DNA of 64,000 bases. It comes from a virus (lineage: Duplodnaviria > Caudoviricetes). Positions 465 through 19,083 of the stretch are shown here, one piece after another; position 1 is the stretch's first letter, and each line of letters opens with the position of its first letter. The DNA lies in the IMG/VR virus record IMGVR_UViG_3300020577_007160, positions 96,001 through 160,000 of that record; one strand, written 5' to 3'. Below the pieces are notes generated by a model. It searched no databases, was not told the origin of the DNA, and saw nothing but the letters and a program-made list of their open reading frames with translations. The position numbers were made by a program, and so were the translations under genes.

Positions 465-1772
465 CTAAGATCTATATGATGATGGATCGATTTTATTTTT
501 ATTTACACTGCAAACATTCAAAATATCTTCTAGTGTAAATACTTTTGAATATTTATAACAACGAAACCAGCCACCAACTTCCGTTGGGCATCTATTTAAA
601 GACTCTATATTATTAAGAGAACAATCAAAACTTCCTTTAAGTTTAGTTGGACAGCCAACTAAAGATGTTAAATTATTTGAGGAACAATTAAGACTTTTTA
701 AAACTTCTGGACAACCTTTTAAAGAGATTAATTTATTATGTGAACAATCAAAATTCCCTTCAACTTCCATGGGACATCCGTCCAAGGATTCCAAGTTATT
801 AAAAGAACAATTAAAATTACCAGCTTTTATTGGAGATCCTTCCAAAGATGTTAGATTGTTGCTAAAACAAGTAAATGTTCCCCCAACTTTCTCGGGACAT
901 CCATCCAAGGATGTTAGGCTGTTACTAGAACAATCAAAATCCCCAGTAACAGTTCCGAATTTGCCAAATCTAAGAATAGAGTTTATTCGTTGCCTAGACA
1001 TATCAACATCCCCATCAACATCTATTAGTCCATCTGAGTTGATTTTGTAAGAACCTTTAATTACCTTCTTTAATAACATTTTTCTTGTTAATAATTCTCT
1101 TACTTTAAATAATTCTTTTGGTAAACCAATTTCTGAAAATGGAATATTAGTATCCAAAGCATTATAACATTCTAATTTTTCATTATAATAAACAGCTACT
1201 GCTGTTTTGTATAAAGGATTTGAACTATCTAATTTCTTATTAAAAACAAAATAAAACGTTACTTTATTTCTTCTATATTGATGAAAGTAATTCTTACTAT
1301 CTGTAGCTGATATACACCACTTCGTGGTGTTACCATATTGAATTGCTGCTTTTTTATTTTTTATCAAAAGAACAAGATGTTTATCATTATTCAAAATTGT
1401 TTCTGTTCCTTTATTTTTAAGAAGTCTTTGTTCTTCTGACTTACTCATTTTATCAGAATTAGAACTTATATACTCATTGAATTCATTATAGGTTTTGAAC
1501 CTGTTGATATCTTTGATATCAAGTAGATTTTTTGAACTTAATCTATCAAATGATTCTATATTATTCTTAAGTTCTTCAAAATCAATAGAAGGATCTTGCA
1601 AATAAAACTTACAGATTTTTTCTATATATTTATACGTCTTCGACGTATCAATTGATACAAGTTCTTCAAATGTTTTAGAATCAATCTTATTTGAATATAA
1701 TTTTCTTGCATTCGCAAGAGATTCAAATAACTGGTTTTCAAGGATTTGGATTCTTTTGAGGAAGGGTTTCAT
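465..1772 (-). CDS. Leader + TKWC domain + LRR-like repeat protein, paralog 1 (6 repeats)
   Basis: KRIQILENQLFES leader, YGNTTKWCISA domain, ~21-aa GxFxCxxNxLxSLxGCP repeats. Confidence 0.8.
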   Translation of the reverse strand: MKPFLKRIQILENQLFESLANARKLYSNKIDSKTFEELVSIDTSKTYKYIEKICKFYLQDPSIDFEELKNNIESFDRLSSKNLLDIKDINRFKTYNEFNEYISSNSDKMSKSEEQRLLKNKGTETILNNDKHLVLLIKNKKAAIQYGNTTKWCISATDSKNYFHQYRRNKVTFYFVFNKKLDSSNPLYKTAVAVYYNEKLECYNALDTNIPFSEIGLPKELFKVRELLTRKMLLKKVIKGSYKINSDGLIDVDGDVDMSRQRINSILRFGKFGTVTGDFDCSSNSLTSLDGCPEKVGGTFTCFSNNLTSLEGSPIKAGNFNCSFNNLESLDGCPMEVEGNFDCSHNKLISLKGCPEVLKSLNCSSNNLTSLVGCPTKLKGSFDCSLNNIESLNRCPTEVGGWFRCYKYSKVFTLEDILNVCSVNKNKIDPSSYRS

Positions 1773-1780
1773 AATTAGTT

Positions 1781-3280
1781 TTATTTAAATTTAGGATTAA
1801 CTAAAACAGTTTTTGCAAACTTAGATCTTATATTAGATGTTGTCGCTACTTCCGTATTGATAGTTATTGTTGATCCAACATTCGTAAATATTTCATCGAT
1901 TTCGCATTCAAATAATATATCAGAATTTGGAGATATTACAGGATCAATAATTTCTATTGACAATATTCCAGGATAATTTATCAATAAGTCATAAATCTCA
2001 GAAAGTAAAACAGGTTCTCCAAAATCCCGAGTCCAATTTCCGTCTGAACCTAAATATAGGGGATCTAATAAATTATTGATTTGAGTATTAACATAAGTAT
2101 CAATATCCCCCTGATCATAATTTGGATCAGTATGAACTGTTAATTCTAATGTTACGGTAATATATTTTGGGTTAACTACTCCAACTTTATATCCTGCAAC
2201 AATAATATCATCAATAGCGGATTTAACATTATCTTTCAAAGGATTGCTAGGATTTCCCCCACCATCAGGGATCAATTGAACTATTGGATAATTTATGTGT
2301 GGTGTAACATTTGCCCTAGCAACTCCATCGTAACTCTCTGCGAATATTTGTATATCCTCGGTGCTAACAAGACGATTATTCATTCGAGGTAATCGAATCG
2401 CTAAAGACCTAATTCGTTCAATTGAATCCGGATTACGACCTCCAGTGGCATCCTTAGGATTAGTTAAAGAAGTAATCCTGCCATTGAGACTTGAAGGGAT
2501 AGTATACGTAGTAGTAATCTTTCCCGCTAGAACATTTCCCCTAGCACCACCACCATTGATATAGGATATTTTTATTACTTCTCCAAGTGTTGGAATTTTA
2601 CCATTGGTATCATCTCCAAAAATAAATTGATGAGTTTCTTCATCTAATTGGCGATATAAATAACGAGTTTCACTCGAACTCGCATTCAATAAACTATCAA
2701 TTTCTGTCCATTCTGTTGCATTGACAAATACCCTAATTGTATTATCAACTAATCTATCTCGAATAATTATTGAAGTAAATGCTGTTCCTTTAGAAGTTTC
2801 AAGACGTTCCTTATATTGACCTTCAATAAATAACTGATTATTAATTGCCGTCGTAGAAGCAGAAAATGTTATTGAAGAAGGATTCGTGAAATAAACCGTA
2901 TTCCCGTCATTCCCTGAAGCAGACAGAACAATAGAGTATGCTGCAGCCACAACAGGGCTTCCACTACTCGTAATAACAAAATTTATTAAAGTATGAGAAC
3001 TGACATAATTAGTAGGAATGTATTGCAATTGTAAGGCATGGTTGAGAATGTTTTCCCTTGTAAGTGCAGTAGCTATATTGAATTCCTGGGAAACATTATT
3101 AGCAAATCTTGCAAGACGTTCAATTGACAATAAGTAATAGTCTAATGTAAATCTTAAAATATCGTTAGCATTATCAATATCCCAGTCTACTAAATTAGAC
3201 TTAGAATTTTTTAATGTTTTAACTTCATTGAATAAAGTTACGTAATCCTGAGAAATTATGTCAGTGAGAATTAAACTCAT
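1781..3280 (-). CDS. Baseplate wedge protein (gpJ / T4 gp6-like)
   Basis: FGDDTNGKIP, YINGGGARGNV, ATGGRNPDSIERIR, RLVSTED motifs; baseplate context. Confidence 0.85.
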   Translation of the reverse strand: MSLILTDIISQDYVTLFNEVKTLKNSKSNLVDWDIDNANDILRFTLDYYLLSIERLARFANNVSQEFNIATALTRENILNHALQLQYIPTNYVSSHTLINFVITSSGSPVVAAAYSIVLSASGNDGNTVYFTNPSSITFSASTTAINNQLFIEGQYKERLETSKGTAFTSIIIRDRLVDNTIRVFVNATEWTEIDSLLNASSSETRYLYRQLDEETHQFIFGDDTNGKIPTLGEVIKISYINGGGARGNVLAGKITTTYTIPSSLNGRITSLTNPKDATGGRNPDSIERIRSLAIRLPRMNNRLVSTEDIQIFAESYDGVARANVTPHINYPIVQLIPDGGGNPSNPLKDNVKSAIDDIIVAGYKVGVVNPKYITVTLELTVHTDPNYDQGDIDTYVNTQINNLLDPLYLGSDGNWTRDFGEPVLLSEIYDLLINYPGILSIEIIDPVISPNSDILFECEIDEIFTNVGSTITINTEVATTSNIRSKFAKTVLVNPKFK

Positions 3281-3298
3281 ATTTTAAATAATATAAAA

Positions 3299-4342
3299 TT
3301 AAACATTTATTTCCCCCTTAACATCACAAACTTTTACTACATCTTTTACTGTAAATTTTTTCTTATTAAAGTAACAACTAAATTTTCCACCAACATATAT
3401 TGGTGCATATTTTAATGATGTTAGAACACAAAAGCCACAATTAAAATATCCGCCAATTTGTATTGGGCATCCTTCTAAGGATGTTAGATTGTTATGAGAA
3501 CAATCAAAATCTCCAGTAACGATTCCAAAATTTCCAATATCTAGAATAGAATTTAATTTTTTATTATTTAAATCAACATCCCCATCAACATCTATTAACC
3601 CTCGAAAATTTATTTTGTATGTTCCTTTAATGCAATTGACTAAATCCTCCTGTTCTGGTAATTCTTTCACTTTAAATAACTTTTCAGATAATCCTAATTT
3701 TGAAAGAATAGAATTTCTAATTTTTTTATCAATTGCATTATAACATTCTAATTTACCACTATAATTAACAGCTACTGCTATTTTATAATTTGGATTTGAA
3801 CTATCTAGTTCTTTATTAAAGATAAAATAAAAAGTAACTCTTTTTCCTCTATAAGACTTAAAATAATTTTTACTATCAGTAGCAGAAATGCACCATTTTG
3901 TGTTTGATCCATATTGAATAGCTGCCTGTTCGTCTTTGATCAAAAGAACAAGAACATTTTCATTATTCAATATCGTTTCTGTTCCTTTATTTTTAAGAAG
4001 TCTTTGTTCTTCTGACTTTGACATTTTATCAGAATTAGAGTCTAAATACTCTTTAAATGAAGAATAAATCTTAAATTGATTTATATCTTTGATATCAATT
4101 AGATTTTTTGAACTTAATCTATCAAATAATTCTATATCTGATTTCAATTCATCTAGATCTATATCTTCATTCTGAAGGTAGAATTTACATATCTTTTCAA
4201 TATATTTATAAGTTTTAGAAATATCTATTGATATAAGTTGTTCAAATATTGAAGGTTCAATCTTATTTGAATATAATTTTCTTGCATTCGCAAGAGATTC
4301 GAATAATTGATTTTCTAGTATTTTGATTCTTTTGAGGATCAT
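3299..4342 (-). CDS. Leader + TKWC domain + LRR-like repeat protein, paralog 2 (2 repeats)
   Basis: Close paralog of 465..1772. Confidence 0.8.
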   Translation of the reverse strand: MILKRIKILENQLFESLANARKLYSNKIEPSIFEQLISIDISKTYKYIEKICKFYLQNEDIDLDELKSDIELFDRLSSKNLIDIKDINQFKIYSSFKEYLDSNSDKMSKSEEQRLLKNKGTETILNNENVLVLLIKDEQAAIQYGSNTKWCISATDSKNYFKSYRGKRVTFYFIFNKELDSSNPNYKIAVAVNYSGKLECYNAIDKKIRNSILSKLGLSEKLFKVKELPEQEDLVNCIKGTYKINFRGLIDVDGDVDLNNKKLNSILDIGNFGIVTGDFDCSHNNLTSLEGCPIQIGGYFNCGFCVLTSLKYAPIYVGGKFSCYFNKKKFTVKDVVKVCDVKGEINV

Positions 4343-4390
4343 TTTATTTGTTAAATTTTATATTAAATTTGATTTTATATATAATATAAT

Positions 4391-4843
4391 TTAAAGTCCA
4401 AAAGAGTCTTTAAAAATTGAGTAACCGAAATTTAATAGTTCTTTATAGGATGTAATATTATGATCCTGAAGAATTACTTTTTTTATATCCTGATCTGGTA
4501 CTACTTTATAATAAGAAATTAAAGTAGAAACTTCTACAGAATTCTCTGCTAAAATATGAGGTAATTTTGATTGAAAATCTATAGCGTAATCAGTTGTAGC
4601 TAGATTTAATTTTTGATCTTCTTTTGGTTCTACGTAGAACCTAACTATCAGATTGTCTGTTGTTTTATTGAATTTAATTTCTACTACAGAATTAATAATT
4701 ATTCCAAATATTGTTTCATATTCATCTTTATAATCAACTGGTGTTTTGCCTCGAAGAATAGTTTTGATCTCTTCGTAGATAGAAGATATTGGTGTCTTGT
4801 AAACTTCTGTTGTTGCTTCTTCCTCTTCTTTTAATCTTTTCAT
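4391..4843 (-). CDS. Hypothetical protein in baseplate cluster
   Basis: 150-aa ORF tightly packed in operon. Confidence 0.6.
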   Translation of the reverse strand: MKRLKEEEEATTEVYKTPISSIYEEIKTILRGKTPVDYKDEYETIFGIIINSVVEIKFNKTTDNLIVRFYVEPKEDQKLNLATTDYAIDFQSKLPHILAENSVEVSTLISYYKVVPDQDIKKVILQDHNITSYKELLNFGYSIFKDSFGL

Positions 4844-4845
4844 TT

Positions 4846-5679
4846 TTAACTCTGCGGTTTATTCGACACAAAATTCTGTCCTGGAACTACTCCTGCCGCA
4901 AGACTAGCCACGTTCGATGGAAACAAAGGTGCAGGAGCACCTAAGTTCCCAACAGCAAGGTTTGGAGCAGCATTCTTCAGCCAATCTACGAAAGGTTTCA
5001 GAGAAACATAATCACCATCAATCTGAGTACCAGAACTCATCATATTTAATATATGACCAAATTTATCTTGTAATGAAATCCCCGATGAATCTAAAACAAT
5101 AGCATTTCCAAATTTATCCTCTATTCGTATTCCTTCAGAAGAAGTTTGAATAAAATTAACAAAAGTATCCGTTATTTTGATACCATTGTTATCCATGAAA
5201 ACTTCGTTGTTATTTTTCCCGTCTTTTATTTTAATAAACTCTTCGTCTTTTTTACGGTTAATTTCAAAAGTTGTTTTGTCAGTAAGATAAATAATCCTAA
5301 AATACTCTTCATCTTTAAAATTATTTAATAGAAAATTCCAATTTTCATCAAAGTACATCATTTTAAGATCTGGATAAAAGGTATCGAAGTCCGTAGATAC
5401 CTTGGATAAATACGTGAATCCAGACCATGCCATATTGTTGAAATCATTGTTCAAAGGTTCTACAATAACTCCGATAAAATTAGAGAATTTCTGAACAAAG
5501 GTTTTTGATGGCACAATAAATTGACCAAATTGAAAAATTGGTTTAACATAACTTATATTTGATTGAAACTTTACTGGTATGTATCCCCTCTTATTAACAT
5601 CATCTACCCAGTATTCTATTGGGGCAAATTCAGCAATATATCGAGTATAAGATTTATTTTTACCAGGTTCTTCAAACAT
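4846..5679 (-). CDS. Putative baseplate spike (gpV/gp5-like beta-helix)
   Basis: Repeated I-x-D-K-F-G-N-x-I beta-repeats (IKITDTFVN, IRIEDKFGN, ISLQDKFGH); follows hub gene; start at MFEE chosen to limit overlap. Confidence 0.55.
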   Translation of the reverse strand: MFEEPGKNKSYTRYIAEFAPIEYWVDDVNKRGYIPVKFQSNISYVKPIFQFGQFIVPSKTFVQKFSNFIGVIVEPLNNDFNNMAWSGFTYLSKVSTDFDTFYPDLKMMYFDENWNFLLNNFKDEEYFRIIYLTDKTTFEINRKKDEEFIKIKDGKNNNEVFMDNNGIKITDTFVNFIQTSSEGIRIEDKFGNAIVLDSSGISLQDKFGHILNMMSSGTQIDGDYVSLKPFVDWLKNAAPNLAVGNLGAPAPLFPSNVASLAAGVVPGQNFVSNKPQS

Positions 5680-6826
5680 AAATTTCACCTTTGACATCAC
5701 AAATTTCTACTACATCCTCTGCTGTAAATTTTTTCTTGTTAGAATAACAATTAAAATTCCCTTTAACTTCCATAGGACATCCTTTTAAGGATGTTAATTT
5801 ATTATTAAAACAATTAAAATTTCCATTAATTTTTGTTGGGCAACCTTCTAAAGATTCTAGATTGTTATAAGTACAAATAAAACTTCCCCCAACTTCCTTT
5901 GGACATCCATCTAAGGATGTTAGTTTATTATCAAAACAACTAAATTTTCCTCCAACTTTTATTGGGCATCCTTTTAAGGATGCCAAATTGTTACCAACAC
6001 AAATAAAATCTCCAGTAACAATTCCGAATCTGCCTATATCAAGAATAGATTTTATATTTGAAATATCTACATCTCCGTCAACATCTATTAATCCTTGAGA
6101 ATTGATTTTATATGTTCCAATAATACAATTTTCTAATTTTTCTTCTTTTGATAATCCTTTTACTACAAATAACTTTTTAGGTAATCCTAATTTTGAAAAT
6201 GAAACCTTTTTATCGACAGCATTATAACATTCTAGTTTTCCCCATTTATAAACAGTAACTGCTATTTTGTATAATGGATTTGAACTATCTAAATCTTTAT
6301 TAAAGACAAAATAAAATGTTACAGATTCTTTTCTATATTTTTTAAAATAGTTTTCACTATCAGTAGCAGAAATGCACCATTTCGTATTTGAACCATACTG
6401 AATAGATGCTTGTTCATCTTTTATTAAAAGTACAAGATATTTATCATTATTCAATACTACTTCTGAACCTTTATTTTTCAATAATTTGACTTCTTCTGAT
6501 TTTGACATTTTGTCAGAATTAGAACTTATATACTCATTGAATTCATCATAAGTTTTAAATCTATTGATATCCTTGATATCAATCAAATTCTTTGAACTTA
6601 ATCTATCAAACAATTTTATATTATTCTTGAGTCCTTTAAGATCTATATCTTCATTCTGAAGGTAAAATTTACATATCTTTTCAATATATTTATAAGTTTT
6701 AGAAGTATCAATTGATATTAGTTCATCAAATACTTCAGGATCAATTTTATTTGAGTATAATTTTCTTGCATTCGCAAGAGACTCGAATAATTGGTTTTCT
6801 AGGATTTGGATTCTTTTGAGTATCAT
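5672..6826 (-). CDS. Leader + TKWC domain + LRR-like repeat protein, paralog 3 (4 repeats)
   Basis: Start MILKRIQILENQLFES at 6826 (TAAAATG context) matches paralogs. Confidence 0.8.
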   Translation of the reverse strand: MILKRIQILENQLFESLANARKLYSNKIDPEVFDELISIDTSKTYKYIEKICKFYLQNEDIDLKGLKNNIKLFDRLSSKNLIDIKDINRFKTYDEFNEYISSNSDKMSKSEEVKLLKNKGSEVVLNNDKYLVLLIKDEQASIQYGSNTKWCISATDSENYFKKYRKESVTFYFVFNKDLDSSNPLYKIAVTVYKWGKLECYNAVDKKVSFSKLGLPKKLFVVKGLSKEEKLENCIIGTYKINSQGLIDVDGDVDISNIKSILDIGRFGIVTGDFICVGNNLASLKGCPIKVGGKFSCFDNKLTSLDGCPKEVGGSFICTYNNLESLEGCPTKINGNFNCFNNKLTSLKGCPMEVKGNFNCYSNKKKFTAEDVVEICDVKGEIYV

Positions 6827-6827
6827 T

Positions 6828-8648
6828 TTACATTCCAAAATTATAAGAAGTTTTCCAACTACCGTTTTCTATTGTGTGAGTTAAAGATTTCAATCGTAAT
6901 CCTGTTAGTTTAGGCTTACGAGTTCCCATGTCCTTTCCGGATGGAGTCTTTATGGTATCAATTTGTGTTGATGAATTTCCAGTATTATTTTGCTTATTCT
7001 TTGCTTCCTGTAATGCCTTCTGTTTTTCAGCTTCATTTTCTTTTGCTATTTGTTCTTCCCTTTTATTGATATCCTGAAGAGATTCTGAATTGACACCAAT
7101 AGAATAATATTTTCCCAATCCGAGGATTGGATAAACCATATTGATCTGCGCAAAAGGATTACCTAACGTTTGGAAACTAGCCTCTATGCCGTGAAACTGA
7201 TAAACCTTGTAGGTATTTCCACCTTCAGGGTATTTCGGTGCTCCAGTGTTAGCGATGAAAAATTGCTTCACAGTTTCAAAATTAAAATTATTTCCTTTTA
7301 TTAATTGATTGAAAGTTGCTTCTGCTTCTGGAGTATCGAGTTTCCTCATATCTAATTCGTATAAAATTGGATCTCCGTTTTCATCGATATCCGTCAATAC
7401 CATTTTTGTTCCGACTTTAGTTCCCTTTGCGATTGTTTTAGTTGGGTCACTAGGATCAACAGTATCAGTTTCCGTAATTATATCCTGTTCTTCCATCACT
7501 GCTGATGCCTGCCAATTACCTGAAATAGTAATTGATGGTTCATCCAGCATAACAAAGTTCTTCGTTATCAAAGGATTGTACGGAATTTTTATCCCATTGT
7601 TCATTCTATTGAAATAGAATTGAACTCGCAAGGAAGTAATGTCCCCATTGGAATTGCTTTTATTTTCTATTACTGCTCTAGTCTCTACATCACCGACTTT
7701 TTTAGGTATTATCTTTCCTGATTTATCAGTAGTTGTTTCATCTTTTTTAACTGTTCTTGCTTCAAAAACCAGAGAAGATCCTGTTTTAGATAAAATGTCT
7801 TTCAACAATAACCAATCTGTTATTGGTTCTGCTTTTATAGATGGTAATACTCTATCTGTGCCAAGTTTAGTTTTTACTTCTTCTATTCTATTGTCTAAAC
7901 AAAAATATATTTCAGGGATTGTACCTCGATATTCTACTGGATATTTATAGCTACCCAATATTTCTCTTAATATATCTTTATTTGATAAGTAGGGTTCAGG
8001 ATCATCCGCTGCTTTTGTAGCCCAAGATCGGTCAAATGTTTTAGAATATTCTGGATTAGTTTTTGCAGCAAGATTTGTTATTTCAACTTCGGTTGAACTT
8101 TTAGCAACTCCAAGACTTGGATATGCAAAAGTTCTGACCGTTCGAGTCATTTCAAATCCAGAACATTGAAATACGTACTCAGCATTTGGATAAGCATTCT
8201 TTGGGAATGATGGTTTCATTTCCTTCAGAAATCCCCGATATTCTTTTACTCCAACATCTGGGAAATCATTAAGATACCGTAAGGAAAATATGCCTTTTAT
8301 ACGAGTACAAATCCCAGGATATAACCATGGGAATTCAATGTCCCCATTTGAGGTTGGTACTCCAGGATCAATGATCTTAAATGATACTTCTGTTATTCCG
8401 TTTTCACTTTCTGTAACAGAAATGCCCCCCATTATCCAGGGCTTATTTATAGAATTTTTAGAACCATCCTCTAAAAAAGAATATTCTTCCCCATAATAAT
8501 CTTTTTTTATTTCAATGTATTCATCCTGAGCATAAACTCCACGATACAAGGTTTCTGTATCAACTTTGATTATTAAAAGTTTAACAGAAAAATCTGCTTC
8601 ATATCCATGAAATAATTCAGTATTTGAATATTCGTCAAAAGTATTCAT
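6828..8648 (-). CDS. Putative baseplate hub (gpD/gp27-like)
   Basis: Size, position between LysM-like and spike genes, TDWLLL..I and C-terminal HTIENGSWKTSY. Confidence 0.5.
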   Translation of the reverse strand: MNTFDEYSNTELFHGYEADFSVKLLIIKVDTETLYRGVYAQDEYIEIKKDYYGEEYSFLEDGSKNSINKPWIMGGISVTESENGITEVSFKIIDPGVPTSNGDIEFPWLYPGICTRIKGIFSLRYLNDFPDVGVKEYRGFLKEMKPSFPKNAYPNAEYVFQCSGFEMTRTVRTFAYPSLGVAKSSTEVEITNLAAKTNPEYSKTFDRSWATKAADDPEPYLSNKDILREILGSYKYPVEYRGTIPEIYFCLDNRIEEVKTKLGTDRVLPSIKAEPITDWLLLKDILSKTGSSLVFEARTVKKDETTTDKSGKIIPKKVGDVETRAVIENKSNSNGDITSLRVQFYFNRMNNGIKIPYNPLITKNFVMLDEPSITISGNWQASAVMEEQDIITETDTVDPSDPTKTIAKGTKVGTKMVLTDIDENGDPILYELDMRKLDTPEAEATFNQLIKGNNFNFETVKQFFIANTGAPKYPEGGNTYKVYQFHGIEASFQTLGNPFAQINMVYPILGLGKYYSIGVNSESLQDINKREEQIAKENEAEKQKALQEAKNKQNNTGNSSTQIDTIKTPSGKDMGTRKPKLTGLRLKSLTHTIENGSWKTSYNFGM

Positions 8649-8924
8649 TTAATTTCTAATGTATACTTTATGATCTGGAACAAGATCCTCAGATTCTATG
8701 AACCATGGAATCGAATTATTATCTGAATCATCAATGAGTAAGAATGGTTTCAAATATGAAGGTCTTAACGGGGTATTTACTCTTTTAAGAATAAAAGATA
8801 AATCTTTTATTTCTTTAATATACTGAAGAGATTTTAACCAAGAAAACCAATTTTTGAAAAAAATTTTTACTTTCAGATAAAATCTAAAAATAGAAATTAA
8901 AGCAATGATTGTAAAGTTATTCAT
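8649..8924 (-). CDS. Hypothetical protein
   Basis: 91-aa ORF in operon. Confidence 0.45.
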   Translation of the reverse strand: MNNFTIIALISIFRFYLKVKIFFKNWFSWLKSLQYIKEIKDLSFILKRVNTPLRPSYLKPFLLIDDSDNNSIPWFIESEDLVPDHKVYIRN

Positions 8925-8943
8925 AAAATCCTTTAAAATAAAT

Positions 8944-9252
8944 TCATATTACCTGCATCCCACGATCATACGTCATTACTTTTGAATTAAGATTCGTTGA
9001 ACTTATCAAAGGTATTTTTATTTTCATTCCTTCTTCTAATTCGTCAGGAAATAGATTAGGATTACTATCATAAATCTTATACCATAATAAACGTTTTCCA
9101 TAGAATTTCATTGCAAGAAATTCAAATACAAAACCTTCAAAGGTATGAATGTCATCATAATTTAAAATGTATTCAATATAATTGACAGTTGTATCTCGTT
9201 TTTCATAAGATTGAACAACTGAATCCTCAATATTTAAAATTGAATATTTCAT
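8944..9252 (-). CDS. LysM/tail-X (gp53-like) baseplate protein
   Basis: LAMKFYG..LWYKIYDSNP...L..G..IKIP pattern. Confidence 0.7.
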   Translation of the reverse strand: MKYSILNIEDSVVQSYEKRDTTVNYIEYILNYDDIHTFEGFVFEFLAMKFYGKRLLWYKIYDSNPNLFPDELEEGMKIKIPLISSTNLNSKVMTYDRGMQVI

Positions 9253-9258
9253 TTTAAA

Positions 9259-10101
9259 TTAAAGCCCTAAGTCCATTGGCATTTCTAAAATTGAATTCGA
9301 TGAAATGCCGAGATTACTCGATGCAATATCGAATGCAAATCCAGCTGCGGATTCTAATATATTTTCCTTTACTTCCAAGTCGGAAATTGAAGATTCTAAT
9401 TTAGCCCAACGGATTCTTTGATTATCCATTTGTTCCGCGAATTGTCCATCTTCAATGACTGCGAAGTTTATTTGAGTCTCAAGATATCGTGGTGTAAGAA
9501 ACCTATTGAAATTCTTTTCAGTTACGTCGAATCCTTTTAATTTTCCTCGAAACCATCGTCTTCCGAGAATCAAATAAACATCTGGAGGTGCGAATGTACC
9601 TTGTCGTTTTTCTTGAGATTCCTGAGATATTTCTGAAGTAACAGAACTCAATAAATTTGTTGCACTGGATTCCAGGGAAGACGTCAAAGTTCCGAGGGAA
9701 ATACCCTCACCTGACGTGAATGGTGCAAGAGTATTTTTAATGAAATTTCCAGCTTCAAATACTTTTTGAAAAGGTCTAGAATTAGATGGCAATGTCAAAG
9801 TCTCAAGAATTGCCTCAATACCAAGAACTCCTAAAGACCTTCGAACTACGGAAGGACTAAGGAGTTCTGTTGCAGAAGTCTCAAACTGTAAGGTAAAATT
9901 TAATTCCTTTTGATTATTTCCACTCCAAGTTAATATTTGAGTAGGATATAATGGTGCATCCAAGGTCTCATAATTAACATCTTTTTTAACAGAAATTTCA
10001 ATAGGGTTAAATTGAAATTTCAGAGTTAATCCAATATCTGGAGCATGAAACATCCCCTTGAGAACTGAATTCCGAAGTTTTGATATTTCTTCTCCAAACA
10101 T
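9259..10101 (-). CDS. Tail tube initiator (CIS tube-like) protein
   Basis: FQFNPIEISVKK, LNFTLQF, PPDVYLILG, F...LTPR motifs; downstream of tape measure. Confidence 0.7.
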   Translation of the reverse strand: MFGEEISKLRNSVLKGMFHAPDIGLTLKFQFNPIEISVKKDVNYETLDAPLYPTQILTWSGNNQKELNFTLQFETSATELLSPSVVRRSLGVLGIEAILETLTLPSNSRPFQKVFEAGNFIKNTLAPFTSGEGISLGTLTSSLESSATNLLSSVTSEISQESQEKRQGTFAPPDVYLILGRRWFRGKLKGFDVTEKNFNRFLTPRYLETQINFAVIEDGQFAEQMDNQRIRWAKLESSISDLEVKENILESAAGFAFDIASSNLGISSNSILEMPMDLGL

Positions 10102-10107
10102 AAATTA

Positions 10108-10525
10108 TTAAAGTTTAAAAATTCTAGGATTAGTTACTCCAGTTATAATTTTGAATTCTTTAAGGGCTAATTCAAAAGTTTGATAATCTTCTATTAATGG
10201 CTTATTTCTTATCTTTTTTCCACTTGGAAGAGTAGTGAATCCTTTAACAGATTCTATGTGAAGAAACCATGTATCATCATTTTTATAAACTGAAGCTACT
10301 AACTCATCTCTATTAGAGACTGCAGTATAAATTACTCCGTATTCCATATCAGGATCGTGGTCTGCTTGTAAAAGATCCATTTTAGTTCCACAAATCCAAT
10401 TCAAACTAAATAAATTAAATCCACTTATTTCATTTAATCTTTTTCTTGGATTACTTTCTACAATATTTTCTAGAATTTCAAGTCTCTCAGAGAGAGAGTT
10501 TTGAACCTGTTCGTGTGTTACGCAT
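10108..10525 (-). CDS. Leader-bearing hypothetical protein, frameshifted at (CT)5-GA
   Basis: ATG 10525 gives MRNTRTGSKLSL* (TGA 10487-10489); shifted frame continues SERLEILENIVESNPRKRLNEIS... into ORF 10108..10404. Confidence 0.6.
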
Positions 10526-10543
10526 TTTATTCTCCTGTTGTGT

Positions 10544-11033
10544 CTAAATTAATTCAAAATCATAAGAATTATGATAATTCAATGGATTTTTTACAACATG
10601 TTTCATCCAACTATCTCCTGAAGTATAATTATCAGCATTGGCTCTCCAAAAAATCTGAGAATATCCATCATCATAATTTAGATAAAAGGATAAACCAGTA
10701 TTATCAAGAATTATAGTACACATTTTATTTTCCAATGAATCTTCTTCAAGATCTAATTTTTCGATTATTATTTGTTCTAATATGGAAGAGATTTTAACAT
10801 AACCGATATAAGGTTCTTGTGGTTCTCTTTTCATTTTAGTAATTCTCTCCGCACCTTCAAAAGTTCCCCAATCTTCTGGAGTAAACCTTTTGAGTTTAAT
10901 ACCATTGGAATATCTCAATACTGGAGGGCAATCGTAATTGTGTTCTTTCAAAGAACCCTTACTCTCTATGATTCTTTCTAATTTTTGAATCCGTTCAGAG
11001 AGAGAGTTTTGAACTTGTTCTTCTGTTGAGCAT
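10544..11033 (-). CDS. Leader-bearing hypothetical protein, frameshifted at (CT)5-GA
   Basis: ATG 11033 gives MLNRRTSSKLSL* (TGA 10995-10997); shifted frame continues SERIQKLERIIESKGSLKEH... into ORF 10544..10951. Confidence 0.6.
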
Positions 11034-11076
11034 TTTACGTCCTTTTATTTAAAATTGTATTAAAACTATATAACTG

Positions 11077-14000
11077 TTATCGTGGCAAAGTTTCCAAACC
11101 GTACTGACGACCTTGTTCTCGACGAATAATGGTCTTGATTTCTTCTAATAATTTCTTCGCATCATAATTCGGATTAACAGAATTTATTTGAATTGACCCT
11201 GCATTGAAATTAATTGTAACAGAATTCGATGAAGAAGTATTTTTAGGACTCTTTTCTTCAGACAAACCAACAGTCTTACGAACCCCAAAAACAGTATCTG
11301 TGGGTTCAAAAAATACGGGTTCTTGTCCTGGACGCACGACGAAGTCCTTACCAGGATTAGCGGCTGACCCACGCTTGATGGATTCAGGTTCTACTGGCTC
11401 TTTTTTATTCGTAGATTTTATGAAATTATCAAGAGTTTCTGGAGTATCTTTCTTCTGTTTTTTATCTGAAATTTTAACAAACTTATCAAGATTATCTATT
11501 GATGGCTTTTCTTCCTTTTCCTTAGGAATTGCCTTCACAACTTTATTGATAGTCTCTGATATTCCTTTATTCTTATTCTCTGAAACAGAACCTTTTTCTG
11601 GTACAAAATTTGTTATTTCTTTTATTGGTTCTTTCTTCTTAGAATCCGGAGTTTCTTTGGTGGTAGTTGCGAGTTTATTTAATTCTTTCGTGGGTTCTTT
11701 TTTAGTTACAGTATCTCGATTTTCTTTCTTGTAAGAATCCGGAATAAACTTATCCATTTTCTGGGACATGGGTTCATTTGAATTCTTAATAGAAGCCAAT
11801 AATTCATCAAATTTTGGATTGGCGAATCCAATGAATTTCAAAGATTTTCCTTTATCAAATGTCCCCATACTATTTGGGAAAGTATTTCGACTGACTTTCA
11901 CGCCTTCCCTGCCTTCCCCGTCAGTGCCAGTATTTCCTTCTACTGTAGTAAATTTGCCTCCTGCCACGCTGTCTACGAGTCCTAAGTGTCCTGAGCCAAA
12001 GGAATTCTGCTTCATGAAATCTTCAAGATTATCTACTGATTTGTCCTTGCCCCATGCTACCAGTGCTCCAGGTTTTGGATTGGTCTTGCTCAATTCAAAA
12101 TATCCGGATTTTCCAGCATTGGCTAAAGTTTCTTGAGCATTGAAACTGAACACATTTTTTATCTTACTCCATACGTCAGGTAGGGACGAAAATATACCCG
12201 AATATGTTGTTTTGGCGAAAGCAGCACACCATGCCAGACCTTCACGGATTTGATCATCAGCGAGTTTCGAAATTGAATCTGAAGAATATCCAGCATATTT
12301 CTTCATCATTTTATTGAAGTTTTCATTTTCAAAACCAAGATTCCCCACTGATACTTTTTTATCGGAAGCTAATTCTGCTATTCCTTTTTCTTCTGCTTCC
12401 TTTTTTGTGAGTAGAAGATTGTTACCTTTTTTATCTGTGATATATTTTCCAGATTTGTCTTTCGCATAATATCCCTGAACTTCTTTCGATACTTCTTTTT
12501 GACCAATGAATTGTTGTGCAAAAGAAGTTAAACTACTGGTAATATTTTCTGGAGTATAATTCTTGGGTAAAAATTCTGCAACATCTTTGATTTCGTCACT
12601 TCCTGCAATTGTTTTAGCAATGCCCGCTACTGGATTCATTCCTGACGTAACAGTATTGACTACTACGTCTTTCGCCAGCCCTACTCCGGCTCTTGCTGCA
12701 TCCATGATATTACCCTTCTTTATTGATTCAATAAATCCAGGTTTTTTACTTACAATTGCTTCATCCTTTTCATTCATAGGATATACTTCACCATTTTTAA
12801 CAATGGCATCATTCACCGCTGGTTTCACTGCGGAATCCTGAAACAGCTGATTCATAGATGCTAAATTTTCCTTCATTACTTCTCCTGTGGCAGAGGATAT
12901 CCAACCAACATATTCCATGGCAGATTTTTTCTGCAACGTTGCCGCTTCTTCACCTTCAGCTTTTTTGCGACTTAAATCACTTTTTGAAAGACTCTGAATA
13001 GCAGAAACCAACTTCATTATTTCATCTAATTTAGCAGTTTTCTCTACCCCATCCTTCATTTTCCGAATATCCGGTAACTGCTTATTGACGTCATATAATT
13101 TATTCTTCATGGTTTCAAATGCCATTGAATACGCAGAACCAGCTTCAATGCCATAATCCCCAAATGATTTCATCTCATCATTCAGGTTATTTACCATAGA
13201 ACTCAGATCAGTAGATTTAGATAAATCTGCGAAAGACGAACCAATGCTCGCAACAATTGACTGAGTTTTTTCTTTTACTCCGTCATCAATAATTAACTTG
13301 GAAATATTAACATTAGGTAATTTATTCAAGACATCAATAACCATGTTTACTGTTTTCTTGAACATTCGAATCATTGGATCAAAGAATCCGTCTCCAAATA
13401 TTAATTCTCCTAAATTAACCATTGAACCAAAACCACCTGATAATAACTGTCCGATTTTAGATGGAATTGAACCAAAGAAATTCATTATGGTATCAGGTAA
13501 ATTCTTTAAATTTGTCATTACCTGATCAGACGCTTCACTGAAAGCAGCACCAAATTTTCCAGGTAATTCTGAGAAGAACTTTGTGAAAGAATTCCAGGCA
13601 TCTTTAATCCAACCAACAATTGAACCAAGAATATTCCCTAACATTGTTGAAAATGTTTTCCACAGATTTTTCAAAGAATCCCAAATGTAGGTTCCAATTG
13701 AACTGAAAATATCAACTATTAACGTCCAAATTCTCCCAAATAATGATTTAACAAAATCCCATAATGCACCAAAGATATTTTTGATATTTTCCCAAGCACC
13801 TGAAAAATCTCCAGTAAAGAGATTTTTGAACATATCAAAAATATTACCAAATACATTCCCGATTAATGCTCCAATATCTTTGAACACGCCGACAACAAAA
13901 TCAATAACTCCACTCAGAATATTTTTTATGAGAGTTATTGCATCAGAAAATCCTTGAACTAAACCACCAAGAAAATTCATAAATGGATTATCAGAACCCA

Positions 14001-16548
14001 TCAAACTCGATGCAGCATCTGACAAAAATGAAGAGATCCAGGTAAGAACTGAATTGAAAGCATTCTTAAAAGTATCCCCAATGAAGCTACCAATTGTATC
14101 AAAAATATCAAATATTTTTCCACCAGCATCCATGAAATCCCCAGAAAACAACGAAGAAAAGAATTCTCCGATTTTTCCAATGATATCCCCTGCTGCGGTG
14201 ACTGCACCTTGCAGTACGGAAATGATAGAATCCCATCCTATTTTCAAGCCAATCAAAACATTCCCCAACCATTTTAAAAATGGATTATCGGATTTCAATA
14301 ATTTATCAGCTATGCCACCAATCCAATCAGATATCCATTTCCCCAATAATCCAAGACCTTCTGATAACATTTTCCCTAATTCTGGACCAATATAAGCTAA
14401 TTGTTCTGCTACCCAAACTAAGGCATCCCAGAGCATTGATGCCAGTCGTGGAGTCCAATCAATGATTATCTGAATAGCACCAATTAATAATTTCTTCAGT
14501 ATTGGTACAATCATTTTCAACAAGCCACCAAGAGTTTTCAATAACTCAGGAAATAATGCCTGAACTTTTGCTCCAAGAGTCTTGGCAAAATTGACAATTG
14601 AATCAATGATTTTTCCTGCAGCAGCAACGACTGCTGGAATTAATTTTGGTAACTGAGAATTGAACCATTTGAAAAATCCAGTAATCAGGTCAAATGCCTT
14701 ACCTACGAATCCAGTTATTCCATCAATCAACATCGAAATTATATCTCCAAGATCTGTCACTCCTCCTGCCAGATCCCCTTTGAATAATTTCTTTATCATT
14801 GAACCAATTTTTTGACCAATGAATCCAAGGATAAATATTATAGGATAAAATATATCTCGAATTTTACCAACAATTGATTTGAAGAACTCCGTAGCACCAC
14901 CCATAGATCCTGAGACGTTCCCTAGCAACCCCCCAATGAACTTGATGACAGTTCCCATCATCGAACCGATTGCCTGCCCTACTGCTAAAATCGAGTCCTT
15001 ATTGGCTTCTATTGTATTAAATATATTTGTTAAAACATCTTGCATTGCACGGAATGCACCCGAACCCGAAATGGTTTGTTGTAATTTTTCAAAGAATCCA
15101 GATATTGAAGCAATCTGACCTTCAGTTGAGTTCTTCATCCTATCAGCATTTCCTGAGTATTGCTTGTCAAGAAAATCTGCTGTTTTTTGCATACGTTCCT
15201 GGTAGGTGCTCGCACCTGCTAATGCTTCCTGCAGTGCTGCTGGATCAATGGTGTTCCCGAAGGACTCCGTGAATGATTGAAAATCCCCACCTTTCGCCAA
15301 CGCAGTCATTGCGGACATAGTGGATTGAAGGTCTTTTCCTGGACCAGTGGCAGCGTTGAGAACTCCTTTGAAATTAACTTTATCTACGCTCAAACCCATT
15401 TCCCCCAATTCAGTGGTATAGGATTCAAGATCGTCTTTTGCTAATCCATATTGCTGGGACATATCATTGATAAATCCGGTTGCTTTTTTAGCATAGTCAG
15501 AACTACCAAAACGATTTGTCATTTTGACAGTCATTTTTTCTAATTCCTGACCAGATTTCCAAGCAGATTCGAATGCCTCTTTGATGGAGTATATTCCCCC
15601 TGCTGCACCACCAATGGCTGCTAACGGAGGAATAAGATTTGTCAAATTGAATGCTTGATCTTTTATTGTTGAGGAAACATTCTTAAATCCTGATACCATT
15701 TTACCAGAAAGATCCTGCATATTCTTAGAAATATTAGAGAGTCCTCTGCCAGCCATTTGAGCAGAAGACAATAATCCTCCTGGAATCGTTGAAAGTCCCC
15801 TGCCTAGGGATTGTGCTGTCCCCCCAATTTTCGACAAACCTGACCCAAATACGCTGCCAAAATTTGATGCTTTCTTTTGATTCTCCGTGATTTCATTTCC
15901 CATTTGAGCCAATGACAAGACTCCATTATCAAATTCATCATTCATTCTTCCTGTTTGAGCAACAACACTATCCAAAGATGAATTTAAATTATTGAGTATA
16001 TCTTCTTGTTCCTGGTTAAAATTTTGAAGACCATTATTCAGATAATCAAATCCTGCGAAGTCTTCCATGTCCTGACTCATGGAATTTACAAATTGAGACT
16101 TTGGATTATAAGCAGTGAAATCATCCAGATCATTCATAGATTCTTGTAAAGATTTTTTAATATCTTTTTGATTCTTTGAATTTAATCTATTGGCTACTTC
16201 TCCTGTTCGAGCAAAATCCGTGAATGTTTTTCCAGATTCTTTTAATTTCTTATTATACTTAGTTTGTTCTGTTTGAGAATTTTTTAATGTTTTATTAAAA
16301 TCTTCTATTTTCTTTTTATTTTTATAATGTGTAGAATATTTTTTATTTAAACCATCATATCCATGTCCAACATCATCCAAACTTTTTTTAAGATTTGAAT
16401 CAAATGTTCCAGTTGTAGTACCGAGATCTTTAACTTTTCCTATCCAATTTTGGATAGATGCAGTTATGCTCTGGATTGTTTTATTAGCAGAATCCAGAGT
16501 AGCAACATCAACACTAAAACCTAAATCTATTTTATTTGGATCTTTCAT
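11077..16548 (-). CDS. Tape measure protein with C-terminal CHAP-type peptidoglycan hydrolase domain
   Basis: 1823 aa, G/A-rich amphipathic W/F-periodic repeats; AWCAAF...GHLGLV...TVEGNT CHAP motif. Confidence 0.9.
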   Translation of the reverse strand: MKDPNKIDLGFSVDVATLDSANKTIQSITASIQNWIGKVKDLGTTTGTFDSNLKKSLDDVGHGYDGLNKKYSTHYKNKKKIEDFNKTLKNSQTEQTKYNKKLKESGKTFTDFARTGEVANRLNSKNQKDIKKSLQESMNDLDDFTAYNPKSQFVNSMSQDMEDFAGFDYLNNGLQNFNQEQEDILNNLNSSLDSVVAQTGRMNDEFDNGVLSLAQMGNEITENQKKASNFGSVFGSGLSKIGGTAQSLGRGLSTIPGGLLSSAQMAGRGLSNISKNMQDLSGKMVSGFKNVSSTIKDQAFNLTNLIPPLAAIGGAAGGIYSIKEAFESAWKSGQELEKMTVKMTNRFGSSDYAKKATGFINDMSQQYGLAKDDLESYTTELGEMGLSVDKVNFKGVLNAATGPGKDLQSTMSAMTALAKGGDFQSFTESFGNTIDPAALQEALAGASTYQERMQKTADFLDKQYSGNADRMKNSTEGQIASISGFFEKLQQTISGSGAFRAMQDVLTNIFNTIEANKDSILAVGQAIGSMMGTVIKFIGGLLGNVSGSMGGATEFFKSIVGKIRDIFYPIIFILGFIGQKIGSMIKKLFKGDLAGGVTDLGDIISMLIDGITGFVGKAFDLITGFFKWFNSQLPKLIPAVVAAAGKIIDSIVNFAKTLGAKVQALFPELLKTLGGLLKMIVPILKKLLIGAIQIIIDWTPRLASMLWDALVWVAEQLAYIGPELGKMLSEGLGLLGKWISDWIGGIADKLLKSDNPFLKWLGNVLIGLKIGWDSIISVLQGAVTAAGDIIGKIGEFFSSLFSGDFMDAGGKIFDIFDTIGSFIGDTFKNAFNSVLTWISSFLSDAASSLMGSDNPFMNFLGGLVQGFSDAITLIKNILSGVIDFVVGVFKDIGALIGNVFGNIFDMFKNLFTGDFSGAWENIKNIFGALWDFVKSLFGRIWTLIVDIFSSIGTYIWDSLKNLWKTFSTMLGNILGSIVGWIKDAWNSFTKFFSELPGKFGAAFSEASDQVMTNLKNLPDTIMNFFGSIPSKIGQLLSGGFGSMVNLGELIFGDGFFDPMIRMFKKTVNMVIDVLNKLPNVNISKLIIDDGVKEKTQSIVASIGSSFADLSKSTDLSSMVNNLNDEMKSFGDYGIEAGSAYSMAFETMKNKLYDVNKQLPDIRKMKDGVEKTAKLDEIMKLVSAIQSLSKSDLSRKKAEGEEAATLQKKSAMEYVGWISSATGEVMKENLASMNQLFQDSAVKPAVNDAIVKNGEVYPMNEKDEAIVSKKPGFIESIKKGNIMDAARAGVGLAKDVVVNTVTSGMNPVAGIAKTIAGSDEIKDVAEFLPKNYTPENITSSLTSFAQQFIGQKEVSKEVQGYYAKDKSGKYITDKKGNNLLLTKKEAEEKGIAELASDKKVSVGNLGFENENFNKMMKKYAGYSSDSISKLADDQIREGLAWCAAFAKTTYSGIFSSLPDVWSKIKNVFSFNAQETLANAGKSGYFELSKTNPKPGALVAWGKDKSVDNLEDFMKQNSFGSGHLGLVDSVAGGKFTTVEGNTGTDGEGREGVKVSRNTFPNSMGTFDKGKSLKFIGFANPKFDELLASIKNSNEPMSQKMDKFIPDSYKKENRDTVTKKEPTKELNKLATTTKETPDSKKKEPIKEITNFVPEKGSVSENKNKGISETINKVVKAIPKEKEEKPSIDNLDKFVKISDKKQKKDTPETLDNFIKSTNKKEPVEPESIKRGSAANPGKDFVVRPGQEPVFFEPTDTVFGVRKTVGLSEEKSPKNTSSSNSVTINFNAGSIQINSVNPNYDAKKLLEEIKTIIRREQGRQYGLETLPR

Positions 16549-16557
16549 TTTAGATTC

Positions 16558-17973
16558 TTAAACTGAAATATGCCTTTTAACATCACAAATTTCCATTACA
16601 TCTTCTGTTGTAAATTTTACAGAATTTCTTGAACAACTAAAATCCCGTCCAACCTTTGTTGGACATCCGTCTAAAGATGTTAATTTGTTTGTGCTACAAC
16701 TAAAATCCCCTCCAACTTTTACAGGGCATCCTTTTAATGTTTTTAAATTATTATTGGAACAATTAAATGTTCTCCCAATTTCCTTCGGACATCCTTTTAA
16801 GGATGTTAGATTATTGCTATAACAATTAAAATTTCCTCGTATTTTTTCTGGACATCCTTCTAAGGATTCTAATTTATTAAAAGAACAGTTAAAATTTTTA
16901 CCAACTTTTGTTGGAGATCCGTCTAAGGATGTTAGACTGTTGCTAGAACAATCAAATGTTCCTCCAACCTTTACTGAATATGCTTCTAAAGATATTAGTC
17001 TAACATTAAAAGAACATTCAAAATTTCCTCCAACTTCCTTTGGACTTCCGTCTAGTGACATTAATAAATTAGTATTACATTTAAAATCACCCCCAACTCT
17101 CGTTGGAGATCCGTCTAAGGATGTCAACTTGCTACCAGAACAATTAAAATTCCCAGTAACAGTTCCGAATCTGCCTATTTCAAGAATTGATTTTATATTG
17201 ATATTTGAAATATCAACATCCCCGTCAACATCTATTAATCCTTGAGAATTAATTTTGTATGTCCCTTTAATTCGAATTTCTAAATTTTCTTCTTTTGATA
17301 ATTCTTTTACTTTAAATAATTCTCTTGGTAAACCAACTTCTGAACACGGAATCTCATTATCTATAGCATCGTAACACTCTAGTCTTCCACTAGAATAAAC
17401 AGCTACTGCTATTTTGTATAATGGATTATCTGAGGACAGAGTTTTGTTGAAAACAAAATAAAATGTTGTGGATTCTTTTCTGTAACGTTTAAAATAATTT
17501 TTACTATCAGTAGCTGAAATACACCATTTTGTGTTTGAACCATATTGAATTGCTGCCTGTTCGTCTTTGATCAATAGGACAAGATATTTATCATTATTCA
17601 ATACTACTTCTGAACCTTTGTTCTTTATTAATTTTGTTTCTTCTGATTTTGACATTTTATCAGAATTAGAGTCTAAATATTCTTTAAATGAAGAATAAGT
17701 CTTAAATTGATTTATATCTTTGATATCAATTAGATTTTTAGATGAAAGTTTATCGAATAATTCAATATTTGATTTTAATTCTTCAAAATCTAGATCTTCA
17801 TTCTGAAGATAGAACTTACATATCTTTTCAATATATTTATAAGTTTTAGAAGTATCAATTGATATTAGTTCATCAAATACTTCAGAACCAATCTTATTTG
17901 AGTATAATTTTCTTGCATTCGCAAGAGACTCAAATAATTGGTTTTCTAATATTTGTATTCTTCTGAGTAGCAT
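16558..17973 (-). CDS. Leader + TKWC domain + LRR-like repeat protein, paralog 4 (8 repeats)
   Basis: Close paralog; lies between tail chaperone and tape measure. Confidence 0.8.
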   Translation of the reverse strand: MLLRRIQILENQLFESLANARKLYSNKIGSEVFDELISIDTSKTYKYIEKICKFYLQNEDLDFEELKSNIELFDKLSSKNLIDIKDINQFKTYSSFKEYLDSNSDKMSKSEETKLIKNKGSEVVLNNDKYLVLLIKDEQAAIQYGSNTKWCISATDSKNYFKRYRKESTTFYFVFNKTLSSDNPLYKIAVAVYSSGRLECYDAIDNEIPCSEVGLPRELFKVKELSKEENLEIRIKGTYKINSQGLIDVDGDVDISNINIKSILEIGRFGTVTGNFNCSGSKLTSLDGSPTRVGGDFKCNTNLLMSLDGSPKEVGGNFECSFNVRLISLEAYSVKVGGTFDCSSNSLTSLDGSPTKVGKNFNCSFNKLESLEGCPEKIRGNFNCYSNNLTSLKGCPKEIGRTFNCSNNNLKTLKGCPVKVGGDFSCSTNKLTSLDGCPTKVGRDFSCSRNSVKFTTEDVMEICDVKRHISV

Positions 17974-18270: not shown

Positions 18271-19083
18271 CTAAGCTGCTATGAATAAAAAATTTGGTTC
18301 AATCGGAACAGAAATTTCTTTATCACAATACGTGCAAGATGCTTCTGTGAACAAACGATGACTTGGAAATTTATTGAATTCTCGAGAAACAATTTGCATA
18401 TCCCGAGCAGTCATTTCACTTATTAATTTTTCTCCAAACATTTTTCGGAGACTGTCAGGTAATTGTGTGCCATCTTCGGATTCGACTGAAACAAAACAAG
18501 AAGCAATTATTCGTTCCCCAAAGTCCGATTTAGCCGATGGAGAAAAATGTTTTTCATTTTTCAACATATCCCCTAAGGTTGGCATTCTGAACGTCATATA
18601 TTTCCAGACCTTACCTTTGAGACCAAGGTCTTCCATATTAGGTAAATTTATTTCTACACCATTGATGAGTTCAGCTAAAAATTCAGCATCTGGAGAAGGA
18701 CAGTCTTCTGGCAATTCAAGATCCTCTAAATTAATATCTAAAGATATTTCCTGTTGCCGTGCGCAGGAACAAACAGTTTTCAATCCTCGTATATCAGAAC
18801 TCAAATTGAAAACATGACCTGCTATCAACAAGTAAGAAACATCAATGAGAGATAAATTTTTAATTACATCTGGAAAATCACGACCAGTCATTGAACACGA
18901 TACTCCTCCAATATTATCCAATATTATTGAAAGAGTTTTAGCCAACCATCGTACTGGGTGTTCTTTACGATAATCATCATTGTTAATTTCTTTTAATTGA
19001 GCTACTTTCAAGGGTTTCAATTTAAAATCTTTGAGTAAAGTACCATTATTCAGTACTCCAACTCTGAGTTCATTTGTTATCAT
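18271..19083 (-). CDS. Tail assembly chaperone / baseplate hub assembly protein
   Basis: Between tube and tape measure; CxC and CxxC motifs, FRMPTLGD. Confidence 0.65.
   Translation of the reverse strand: MITNELRVGVLNNGTLLKDFKLKPLKVAQLKEINNDDYRKEHPVRWLAKTLSIILDNIGGVSCSMTGRDFPDVIKNLSLIDVSYLLIAGHVFNLSSDIRGLKTVCSCARQQEISLDINLEDLELPEDCPSPDAEFLAELINGVEINLPNMEDLGLKGKVWKYMTFRMPTLGDMLKNEKHFSPSAKSDFGERIIASCFVSVESEDGTQLPDSLRKMFGEKLISEMTARDMQIVSREFNKFPSHRLFTEASCTYCDKEISVPIEPNFLFIAA

Follow-up and report, generated by a model that had tools for sequence, protein, structure and literature searches.

Why does a single phage genome carry four dispersed genes that join the same conserved domain to leucine-rich repeat (LRR) arrays of different lengths? 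The question was raised by a window of 64,000 nucleotides (bases 96001–160000, G+C content of about 30%) from IMG/VR record IMGVR_UViG_3300020577_007160, a complete virus genome of 179,512 bp with direct terminal repeats. Bioinformatics analysis suggests that the four genes, designated P1–P4, encode binder or effector proteins that are carried by the virion and, most likely, packaged into the head, trimmed of a leader and ejected; we put the chance of this reading a little below even. All four ORFs are located on the minus strand, have stop-free translations and share one common architecture. The paralogs, and the parts of the longest of them, are as follows (positions in the window, unless genome positions are indicated):

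465–1772, minus strand: P1, 435 aa, with six LRR units (~573–944) and a divergent cap; directly downstream of the baseplate J gene
3299–4342, minus strand: P2, 347 aa, with two LRR units (~3389–3514, the second degenerate) and a cap
5672–6826, minus strand: P3, 384 aa from the ATG at 6826, with four LRR units (~5762–6013) and a cap
16558–17973, minus strand: P4, 471 aa, with leader, putative PcfJ-like domain, hairpin cap, eight LRR units and C-cap; directly upstream of the tape measure gene
17926–17973, minus strand: leader of P4 (residues 1–16), MLLRRIQILENQLFES, with two phi-x-E motifs (ILE-10 and LFE-15)
17269–17925, minus strand: conserved N-domain of P4 (residues 17–235), a helical half and an alpha/beta half, with the invariant C151 in G-x-x-T-K-W-C
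16642–17154, minus strand: LRR array of P4, eight units of 21–22 residues

Each protein begins with a 16-residue leader, followed by a conserved domain of ~220 residues that contains Y-G-x-x-T-K-W-C-I-S-A, a beta-hairpin cap, the LRR units, a half-unit and a short helical C-cap. The hairpin, with G-D-V-D and a G-x-F-G-x-V-T-G junction, lies between the conserved domain and the array. Parsing of the arrays (period of 20–22 residues) yielded six, two, four and eight full units for P1–P4, the same numbers that had been counted by eye in a first-pass annotation of this DNA. The order of leader, constant domain, repeat array and cap proposed there is present in all four ORFs, and every repeat segment reported there as shared between paralogs was found at its array positions. 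The start of P3 is most likely the ATG at 6826 rather than the TTG at 6838 (ORF 5672–6838), because the N-terminus (MILKRIQILEN...) then equals that of the other paralogs. The AF2 model of full-length P4 has a pLDDT of 83.8, with values of about 90 within the LRR array. The T4 late-promoter octamer TATAAATA was found in all four paralogs (1627–1634, 4203–4210, 6687–6694 and 17834–17841, minus strand) and is commoner than expected across the window (21 observed vs. 10.7 expected). It was rejected as an internal late promoter, since it falls on conserved T-Y-K-Y codons and is probably a coding coincidence. The isoelectric point was uninformative as a clue to DNA association.

The leader has the consensus M-x-L-K-R-I-Q-I-L-E-N-Q-L-F-E-S. 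Genome-wide, 28 ORFs have its motif within their N-terminal 26 residues (some 26 of these ORFs are clearly leader-like), and a control window at residues 30–56 gave a single occurrence. Around two dozen of the leader-bearing ORFs are small, unrelated and spread across the genome, and the leader is also found on all six LRR proteins that the phage encodes. Both ILE-10 and LFE-15 are present in the leaders of all four paralogs. The first 30 codons are the best-conserved DNA among the paralogs (identity of 0.88–0.92 vs. 0.75–0.83 overall), and the leader residues are kept at the protein level in relatives that are only 50–60% identical elsewhere. In all of the 56 aligned members of the wider family, E15 followed by S or G at position 16 is retained, after N-terminal extensions of mostly 9–18 residues.

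Two head genes of the window bear directly on the possible role of this leader:

32956–34356, minus strand: gp23-type major capsid protein (Gp23 match, 183.8 bits)
34374–35915, minus strand: T4-type prohead protease (Peptidase_S77, 69.6 bits), to which a coiled-coil, scaffold-like C-terminal half is fused

Based on the presence of these two genes, the phage has a T4-like head. The N-terminus of the protease itself contains a leader-like stretch, T-R-I-K-I-L-E-S. According to the literature, T4-type and giant-phage prohead proteases cleave after Glu in short motifs, and the internal proteins of T4 are loaded via a capsid targeting sequence (PMC5694885, PMC3012670). The ejection-protein paralogs gp53 and gp54 of phage SPN3US have identical propeptides (PMC5694885). 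The leader-bearing ORFs resemble the T4 internal proteins (IPI, IPII, IPIII and Alt; PMC3012670) in that a short N-terminal tag is common to otherwise unrelated proteins. As in the T4 internal and giant-phage ejection proteins, this tag ends in a phi-x-E of the type cut by a phage-encoded T4-type prohead protease, and, as in SPN3US gp53/gp54 and phiKZ gp93 (PMC5694885), divergence has affected the body of the paralogs but spared the propeptide. The leader sequence, however, differs from that of T4, and the loading, cleavage and ejection of P1–P4 are putative. The cargo would differ as well: T4 carries small basic proteins and an ADP-ribosyltransferase, whereas P1–P4 are large proteins that combine a PcfJ-like domain with LRRs.

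A further indication comes from phage PA5oct, whose protein EST35_0205 is a homolog of the N-domain and is annotated as a virion protein by ESI-MS/MS. Its N-terminus, M-K-L-F-E-V-F-T-L-Y-E, likewise ends in phi-x-E, and PA5oct carries a T4-like protease/scaffold gene. Packaging by means of the leader, as proposed in the first-pass annotation, is therefore plausible, given the 28 leader-bearing ORFs, the phi-x-E end, the Peptidase_S77 and gp23 genes and the homolog in the PA5oct virion. In the proposed sequence of events, the shared leader would direct the proteins into the prohead, the T4-type protease of the phage would trim it after a phi-x-E site, and the proteins would be ejected into the host together with the DNA. 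There, the InlJ/IpaH-like solenoid, whose length and surface vary by paralog, would bind a target protein, and the part played by the PcfJ-like domain and its invariant Cys would be an activity or docking function common to all four. From the virion protein of PA5oct, the leader and the protease gene we infer that P1–P4 may be ejected head cargo; their targets, an anti-defence role and the activity of the N-domain are put forward in the same conditional sense.

The part that distinguishes P1–P4 is the domain between the leader and the LRR array, which appears to be a distant PcfJ-like domain. Its best score with Pfam PF14284 (PcfJ) was 17.3 bits (E-value, 0.004), which is below the gathering threshold of 25 bits, and only 2 of the 66 family members matched PF14284 at an E-value of 1e-4 or better. 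Nothing above threshold was found for the N-domain in Pfam, NCBIfam or PADLOC. In PHROGs, it matches phrog_17056 (unknown function; E-values, 1e-9 to 8e-8). Foldseek against BFVD returned PcfJ-annotated phage proteins at E-values of 4.6e-5 to 1e-2 with low TM scores (0.23–0.27); these were weaker than the other matches, which included a "structural protein" of PA5oct, several paralogs from Salicola phage SCTP-2 and ankyrin proteins of Marseillevirus. The Atlas feature search placed PcfJ clusters at 0.83–0.85, which is a lead only. The N-domain thus matches PHROG 17056 and EST35_0205 and may be related to PcfJ-annotated phage proteins, in a family that is often fused to binding repeats.

The AF2 model of the N-domain, built from a 66-sequence alignment, has a pLDDT of 93.5. 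Foldseek of this model against the PDB gave no fold match (best E-value, 0.2). The best VIA-align hit among 48,161 chains was a designed helical protein (Z, 5.9), and the alpha/beta half reached only Z 4.0–4.7, to GNAT-like and nucleotide phosphatase folds. Since PDB fold and profile searches gave no match beyond the LRR part, the fold of the domain cannot be named. C151 is invariant, and D40, K46, D86, G145, T148, W150, Y172 and K187 are nearly so. A word-indexed search retrieved 16 proteins, about ten of them close relatives with like architecture and variable length, and the exhaustive search retrieved 3880 clusters (50% identity) at E-values of 1e-3 or below, 856 of them at 1e-10 or below; large phages commonly encode the domain. 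Members of the family are fused to LRRs that include canonical ones, to ankyrin repeats, to pentapeptide repeats or to DGR-diversified domains, the ankyrin fusions occurring also in giant viruses, and two to five domain copies are found within single giant proteins of 1200–1850 residues (e.g., P0027, P0025, P0079 and P0077, metagenomic representatives). To our knowledge, no member of the PcfJ-like family has an assigned function or a solved structure.

The arrays themselves are true leucine-rich repeats of the VxGx(L/F)x(L/C)xxNxL "cysteine ladder" class. They align in register with Listeria InlJ (PDB 3bz5; E-value, 3.6e-13) and match the NCBIfam internalin_J model (E-value, 6e-15). The class pattern fits 19 of the 20 full units, with F3, C5, N8, L10 and L13 fixed or nearly so, and V-x-G-x-F-x-C-x-x-N-x-L is present in nearly every unit. 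According to a summary in PMC8181103, VxGxLxLxxNxL was described by Miyashita et al. (2014) as a "novel" class of the highly conserved segment of LRRs. A profile that included the arrays also matched IpaH9.8, SspH1 and SlrP among PDB sequences, in the LRR part only, and Foldseek with the AF2 model matched the solenoid to SspH1, IpaH1.4, YopM and InlJ. TRF detected periods of 63 and 126 nt in the arrays, that of 126 nt in P3 (5736–6009) and P4. Chance would not come near to producing a periodicity of this kind.

Both InlJ and the phage proteins are built from 21-residue units whose second core position is occupied by Cys (the cysteine ladder). However, InlJ is anchored to the bacterial surface by sortase, bears an internalin cap and lacks a PcfJ-like domain, whereas in the phage proteins a further Cys (G-C-P) is conserved, a beta-hairpin caps the array N-terminally, and the short helical C-cap has C-D-V-K-G at its end. 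In solenoid geometry, the closest structures (SspH1, IpaH1.4 and YopM) belong to the IpaH/SspH/SlrP/YopM type III effectors and, if ejected, the phage proteins would likewise be injected proteins that join an LRR target-recognition module to a second domain. They differ from IpaH and SspH in that the order is reversed, with the LRRs C-terminal, and in that no NEL E3 ligase domain was found by Pfam or NCBIfam search of the paralogs. Delivery would be by phage ejection and not by a secretion system, and the role of the partner domain is only proposed. Repeats of the same class are also present in Vibrio phage VB_VaC_SRILMA (PP083314.1; L011:4950-5585), which encodes a 211-aa protein consisting almost entirely of eight near-identical 21-residue units, without leader and without N-domain; its gene is flanked by one for a DnaB-like helicase and by small early genes.

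The genes that surround the paralogs in the window include the following:

1781–3280: baseplate J gene
11077–16548, minus strand: tape measure gene, 1823 aa, with a CHAP peptidoglycan hydrolase domain near residues 1436–1539
18271–19083: hub gene
19112–19603: tube gene

The gene order is tube, hub, P4, tape measure, further genes, P3, P2, baseplate J and P1. Intergenic gaps are tiny, a terminator lies just upstream of P4, and the paralogs have no evident promoter of their own. A tail-fibre candidate (578 aa) is found downstream.

Megablast of 20 kb against phage records gave no match. Scans of IMG/VR with the N-domain and baseplate J revealed no close relative, and the alignment-based scan of IMG/VR returned distant loci only. 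A metagenome scan, on the other hand, provided two contigs (L007 and L008) of one related phage, whose structural proteins are 59–71% identical to those studied here. In L007, a family member is again located before the tape measure gene, and a second one lies between genes for 282-aa and 102-aa proteins, in a slot that is empty in this phage. In L008, a family member directly follows a DNA polymerase A homolog, and then come two LRR proteins that have yet another N-domain and each carry a leader. Because the relative has members in other slots, one of them beside DNA polymerase, the location of P1–P4 among tail genes says little about whether they function in the tail.

The LRR module also travels on different leader-bearing N-terminal heads. 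Two further leader-bearing LRR proteins are encoded outside of the window on the minus strand (genome 66557–67867 and 71195–72529; L013:3557-4867 and L013:8195-9529), each combining a different N-domain with two LRR modules that are degenerate but of the same type; their genes flank the DNA polymerase A gene. A conserved promoter-like block of ~25 nt (G-T-T-A-T-A-T-A-G-T-T-T-T-C-A-A-T-T-C-A-A-C-A-A) was observed before leader genes of the replication region, with gene starts at genome positions 47348, 57537, 61928, 63509, 66491 and 81163 (minus strand). The family member of L008 is preceded by a promoter-like motif (L008:4300-4320) that resembles this block.

Divergence of the paralogs bears on how the set arose. 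Their N-domains show a dS of 0.63–0.89, a dN/dS of 0.18–0.24 and an identity that is mosaic along the length; the paralogs are old and under purifying selection. The first-pass annotation had proposed a shuffled repertoire of binders and, in its strongest form, this would be an antibody-like system in which repeat cassettes are actively exchanged between paralogs and the concave face is hypervariable. Such a system would agree with the mosaic N-domain, with the lack of grouping of the units by paralog (DNA identity averages 0.674 within and 0.678 between paralogs) and with the finding that most units have their best partner in another paralog. However, unit identities are low (mean of 0.67; the best pair reaches 0.88 over 57 nt), the arrays showed no recent conversion tracts, and any unit exchange must be old in view of these identities and the dS values. 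Collinear arrays with two-unit gaps explain the pattern better than shuffling: at the unit level, P1 and P3 each align with P4 by skipping P4 units 2–3, although the signal is weak, as the collinearity score was reached in 166 (P1) and 89 (P3) of 2000 permutations. A two-unit super-repeat is weakly indicated by the 126-nt period in P3 and P4 and by a unit identity of 0.70 at lag 2 vs. 0.66 at lag 1. Array length may thus have changed mainly by two-unit insertions and deletions, followed by long divergence, which, as far as this weak signal goes, would account for both the recurrence of segments at differing positions and the even counts. Evenness holds in this phage but is rejected as a rule of the family, since relatives have two to nine units, including 3, 5, 7 and 9.

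The expectation that variability is concentrated on the concave strand face did not stand. Over 66 units, positional entropy is 3.10 bits for concave-face and 3.07 bits for other exposed positions, and concave-face hypervariability was therefore rejected; restricting the calculation to the four paralogs gives 2.36 and 1.99 bits. The composition differs by face, with S, N, D, T, F and Y on the concave face and K, E and T elsewhere. The fixed framework of the repeats was borne out, while variation is not restricted to the surroundings of FxCxxN but affects all exposed positions. An actively recombining repertoire is therefore very unlikely, whereas a repertoire in the plainer sense is retained: array length and surface differ between the paralogs, and different specificities are plausible.

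Of the other two explanations, one regards the paralogs as baseplate- or tail-attached adhesins, acting as accessory receptor-binding proteins, in which the N-domain would dock on the baseplate and the LRRs would bind different host surface structures and give the tail multiple specificities. The location of all four genes among those for baseplate J, tape measure, hub and tube, in a tightly packed arrangement without evident own promoters, speaks for it, as do the slot before the tape measure gene that is kept in L007 and the function of InlJ, the closest LRR of solved structure, as a surface adhesin. Such a role is nevertheless unlikely. The relative has a member beside DNA polymerase and another in a different slot of the tail module, the leader is shared with about two dozen small unrelated ORFs, and Pfam, PHROGs, the PDB fold search and BFVD revealed no fibre, tailspike, trimerisation or baseplate-adaptor feature. 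Moreover, the 578-aa protein offers a conventional tail-fibre candidate, and the fusion of the N-domain to ankyrin repeats in giant viruses, as well as its occurrence in up to five copies in single giant proteins, fits poorly with a docking module of the tail. Alternatively, the proteins could act inside the infected cell without entering the virion, as host take-over factors, assembly chaperones or immune-sensor decoys, the leader then being a handle for recombination or a tag that affects expression or stability. The replication-region promoter motif before several leader genes and the L008 family member would agree with this, and so would the leaderless protein among the early genes of phage SRILMA. 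We regard this possibility as doubtful, since the homolog in PA5oct is a virion protein, the leader has a protease-type motif at its end and keeps its residues in otherwise diverged relatives, and the genes run in the same direction as the structural operons in which they lie.

Several of these observations weigh against ejected head cargo as well. The co-orientation of the paralogs within the tail/baseplate operon would fit a tail role too, as would the family member that the related phage also has upstream of its tape measure gene. Because a different, replication-region promoter motif precedes some leader genes, the timing of those genes is perhaps not late, and a leaderless LRR protein of the same type occurs in the early region of a Vibrio phage. 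ESI-MS/MS of PA5oct locates EST35_0205 in the virion and does not place the homolog in the head. In addition, the motif phi-x-E-[A/S/G] also stands before internal domain copies in the giant multi-copy proteins, so the junction may reflect the structure of the first helix and not be a site of cleavage; alternatively, the giant proteins may be polyproteins cut there by a prohead protease.

If P1–P4 are head cargo, they would extend the idea of T4 internal proteins from small single-purpose inhibitors to modular proteins, with a binder of variable LRR length on a constant domain, and would provide the first functional handle on the very large PcfJ-like superfamily. As four natural variants of one scaffold in one uncultured phage, they make the search for targets straightforward. 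As tail adhesins, by contrast, they would be an unusual set of receptor-binding proteins based on LRRs. A wider generalisation, rather unlikely as a whole, is that the heads of large T4-like phages are loaded with a whole panel of effectors, each made of two domains: an LRR module, variable in length, would direct the conserved, Cys-bearing PcfJ-like domain to different host proteins (e.g., defence sensors or nucleases). Such a panel would be the phage-ejected counterpart of type III LRR effectors, and the PcfJ-like domains of phages and conjugative plasmids would generally be entry-stage effector modules.

Other features were observed near the genes discussed above. An ORF adjoining the head genes (37305–38246, minus strand; 313 aa) has a GIY-YIG-type start (G-I-Y-K-I ... 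Y-I-G-Q-S) followed by lysine-rich repeats and, judging from its sequence, looks like a homing endonuclease. Also close to the head genes, 28820–30421 (minus strand) encodes a 533-aa protein whose central and C-terminal parts form a very long acidic stretch rich in D/E. Intein splicing domains were identified by Pfam in the DNA polymerase A gene (L013:4931-7471; genome 67931–70471) and in a ResIII/DEAD helicase gene (L013:558-2513; genome 63558–65513).

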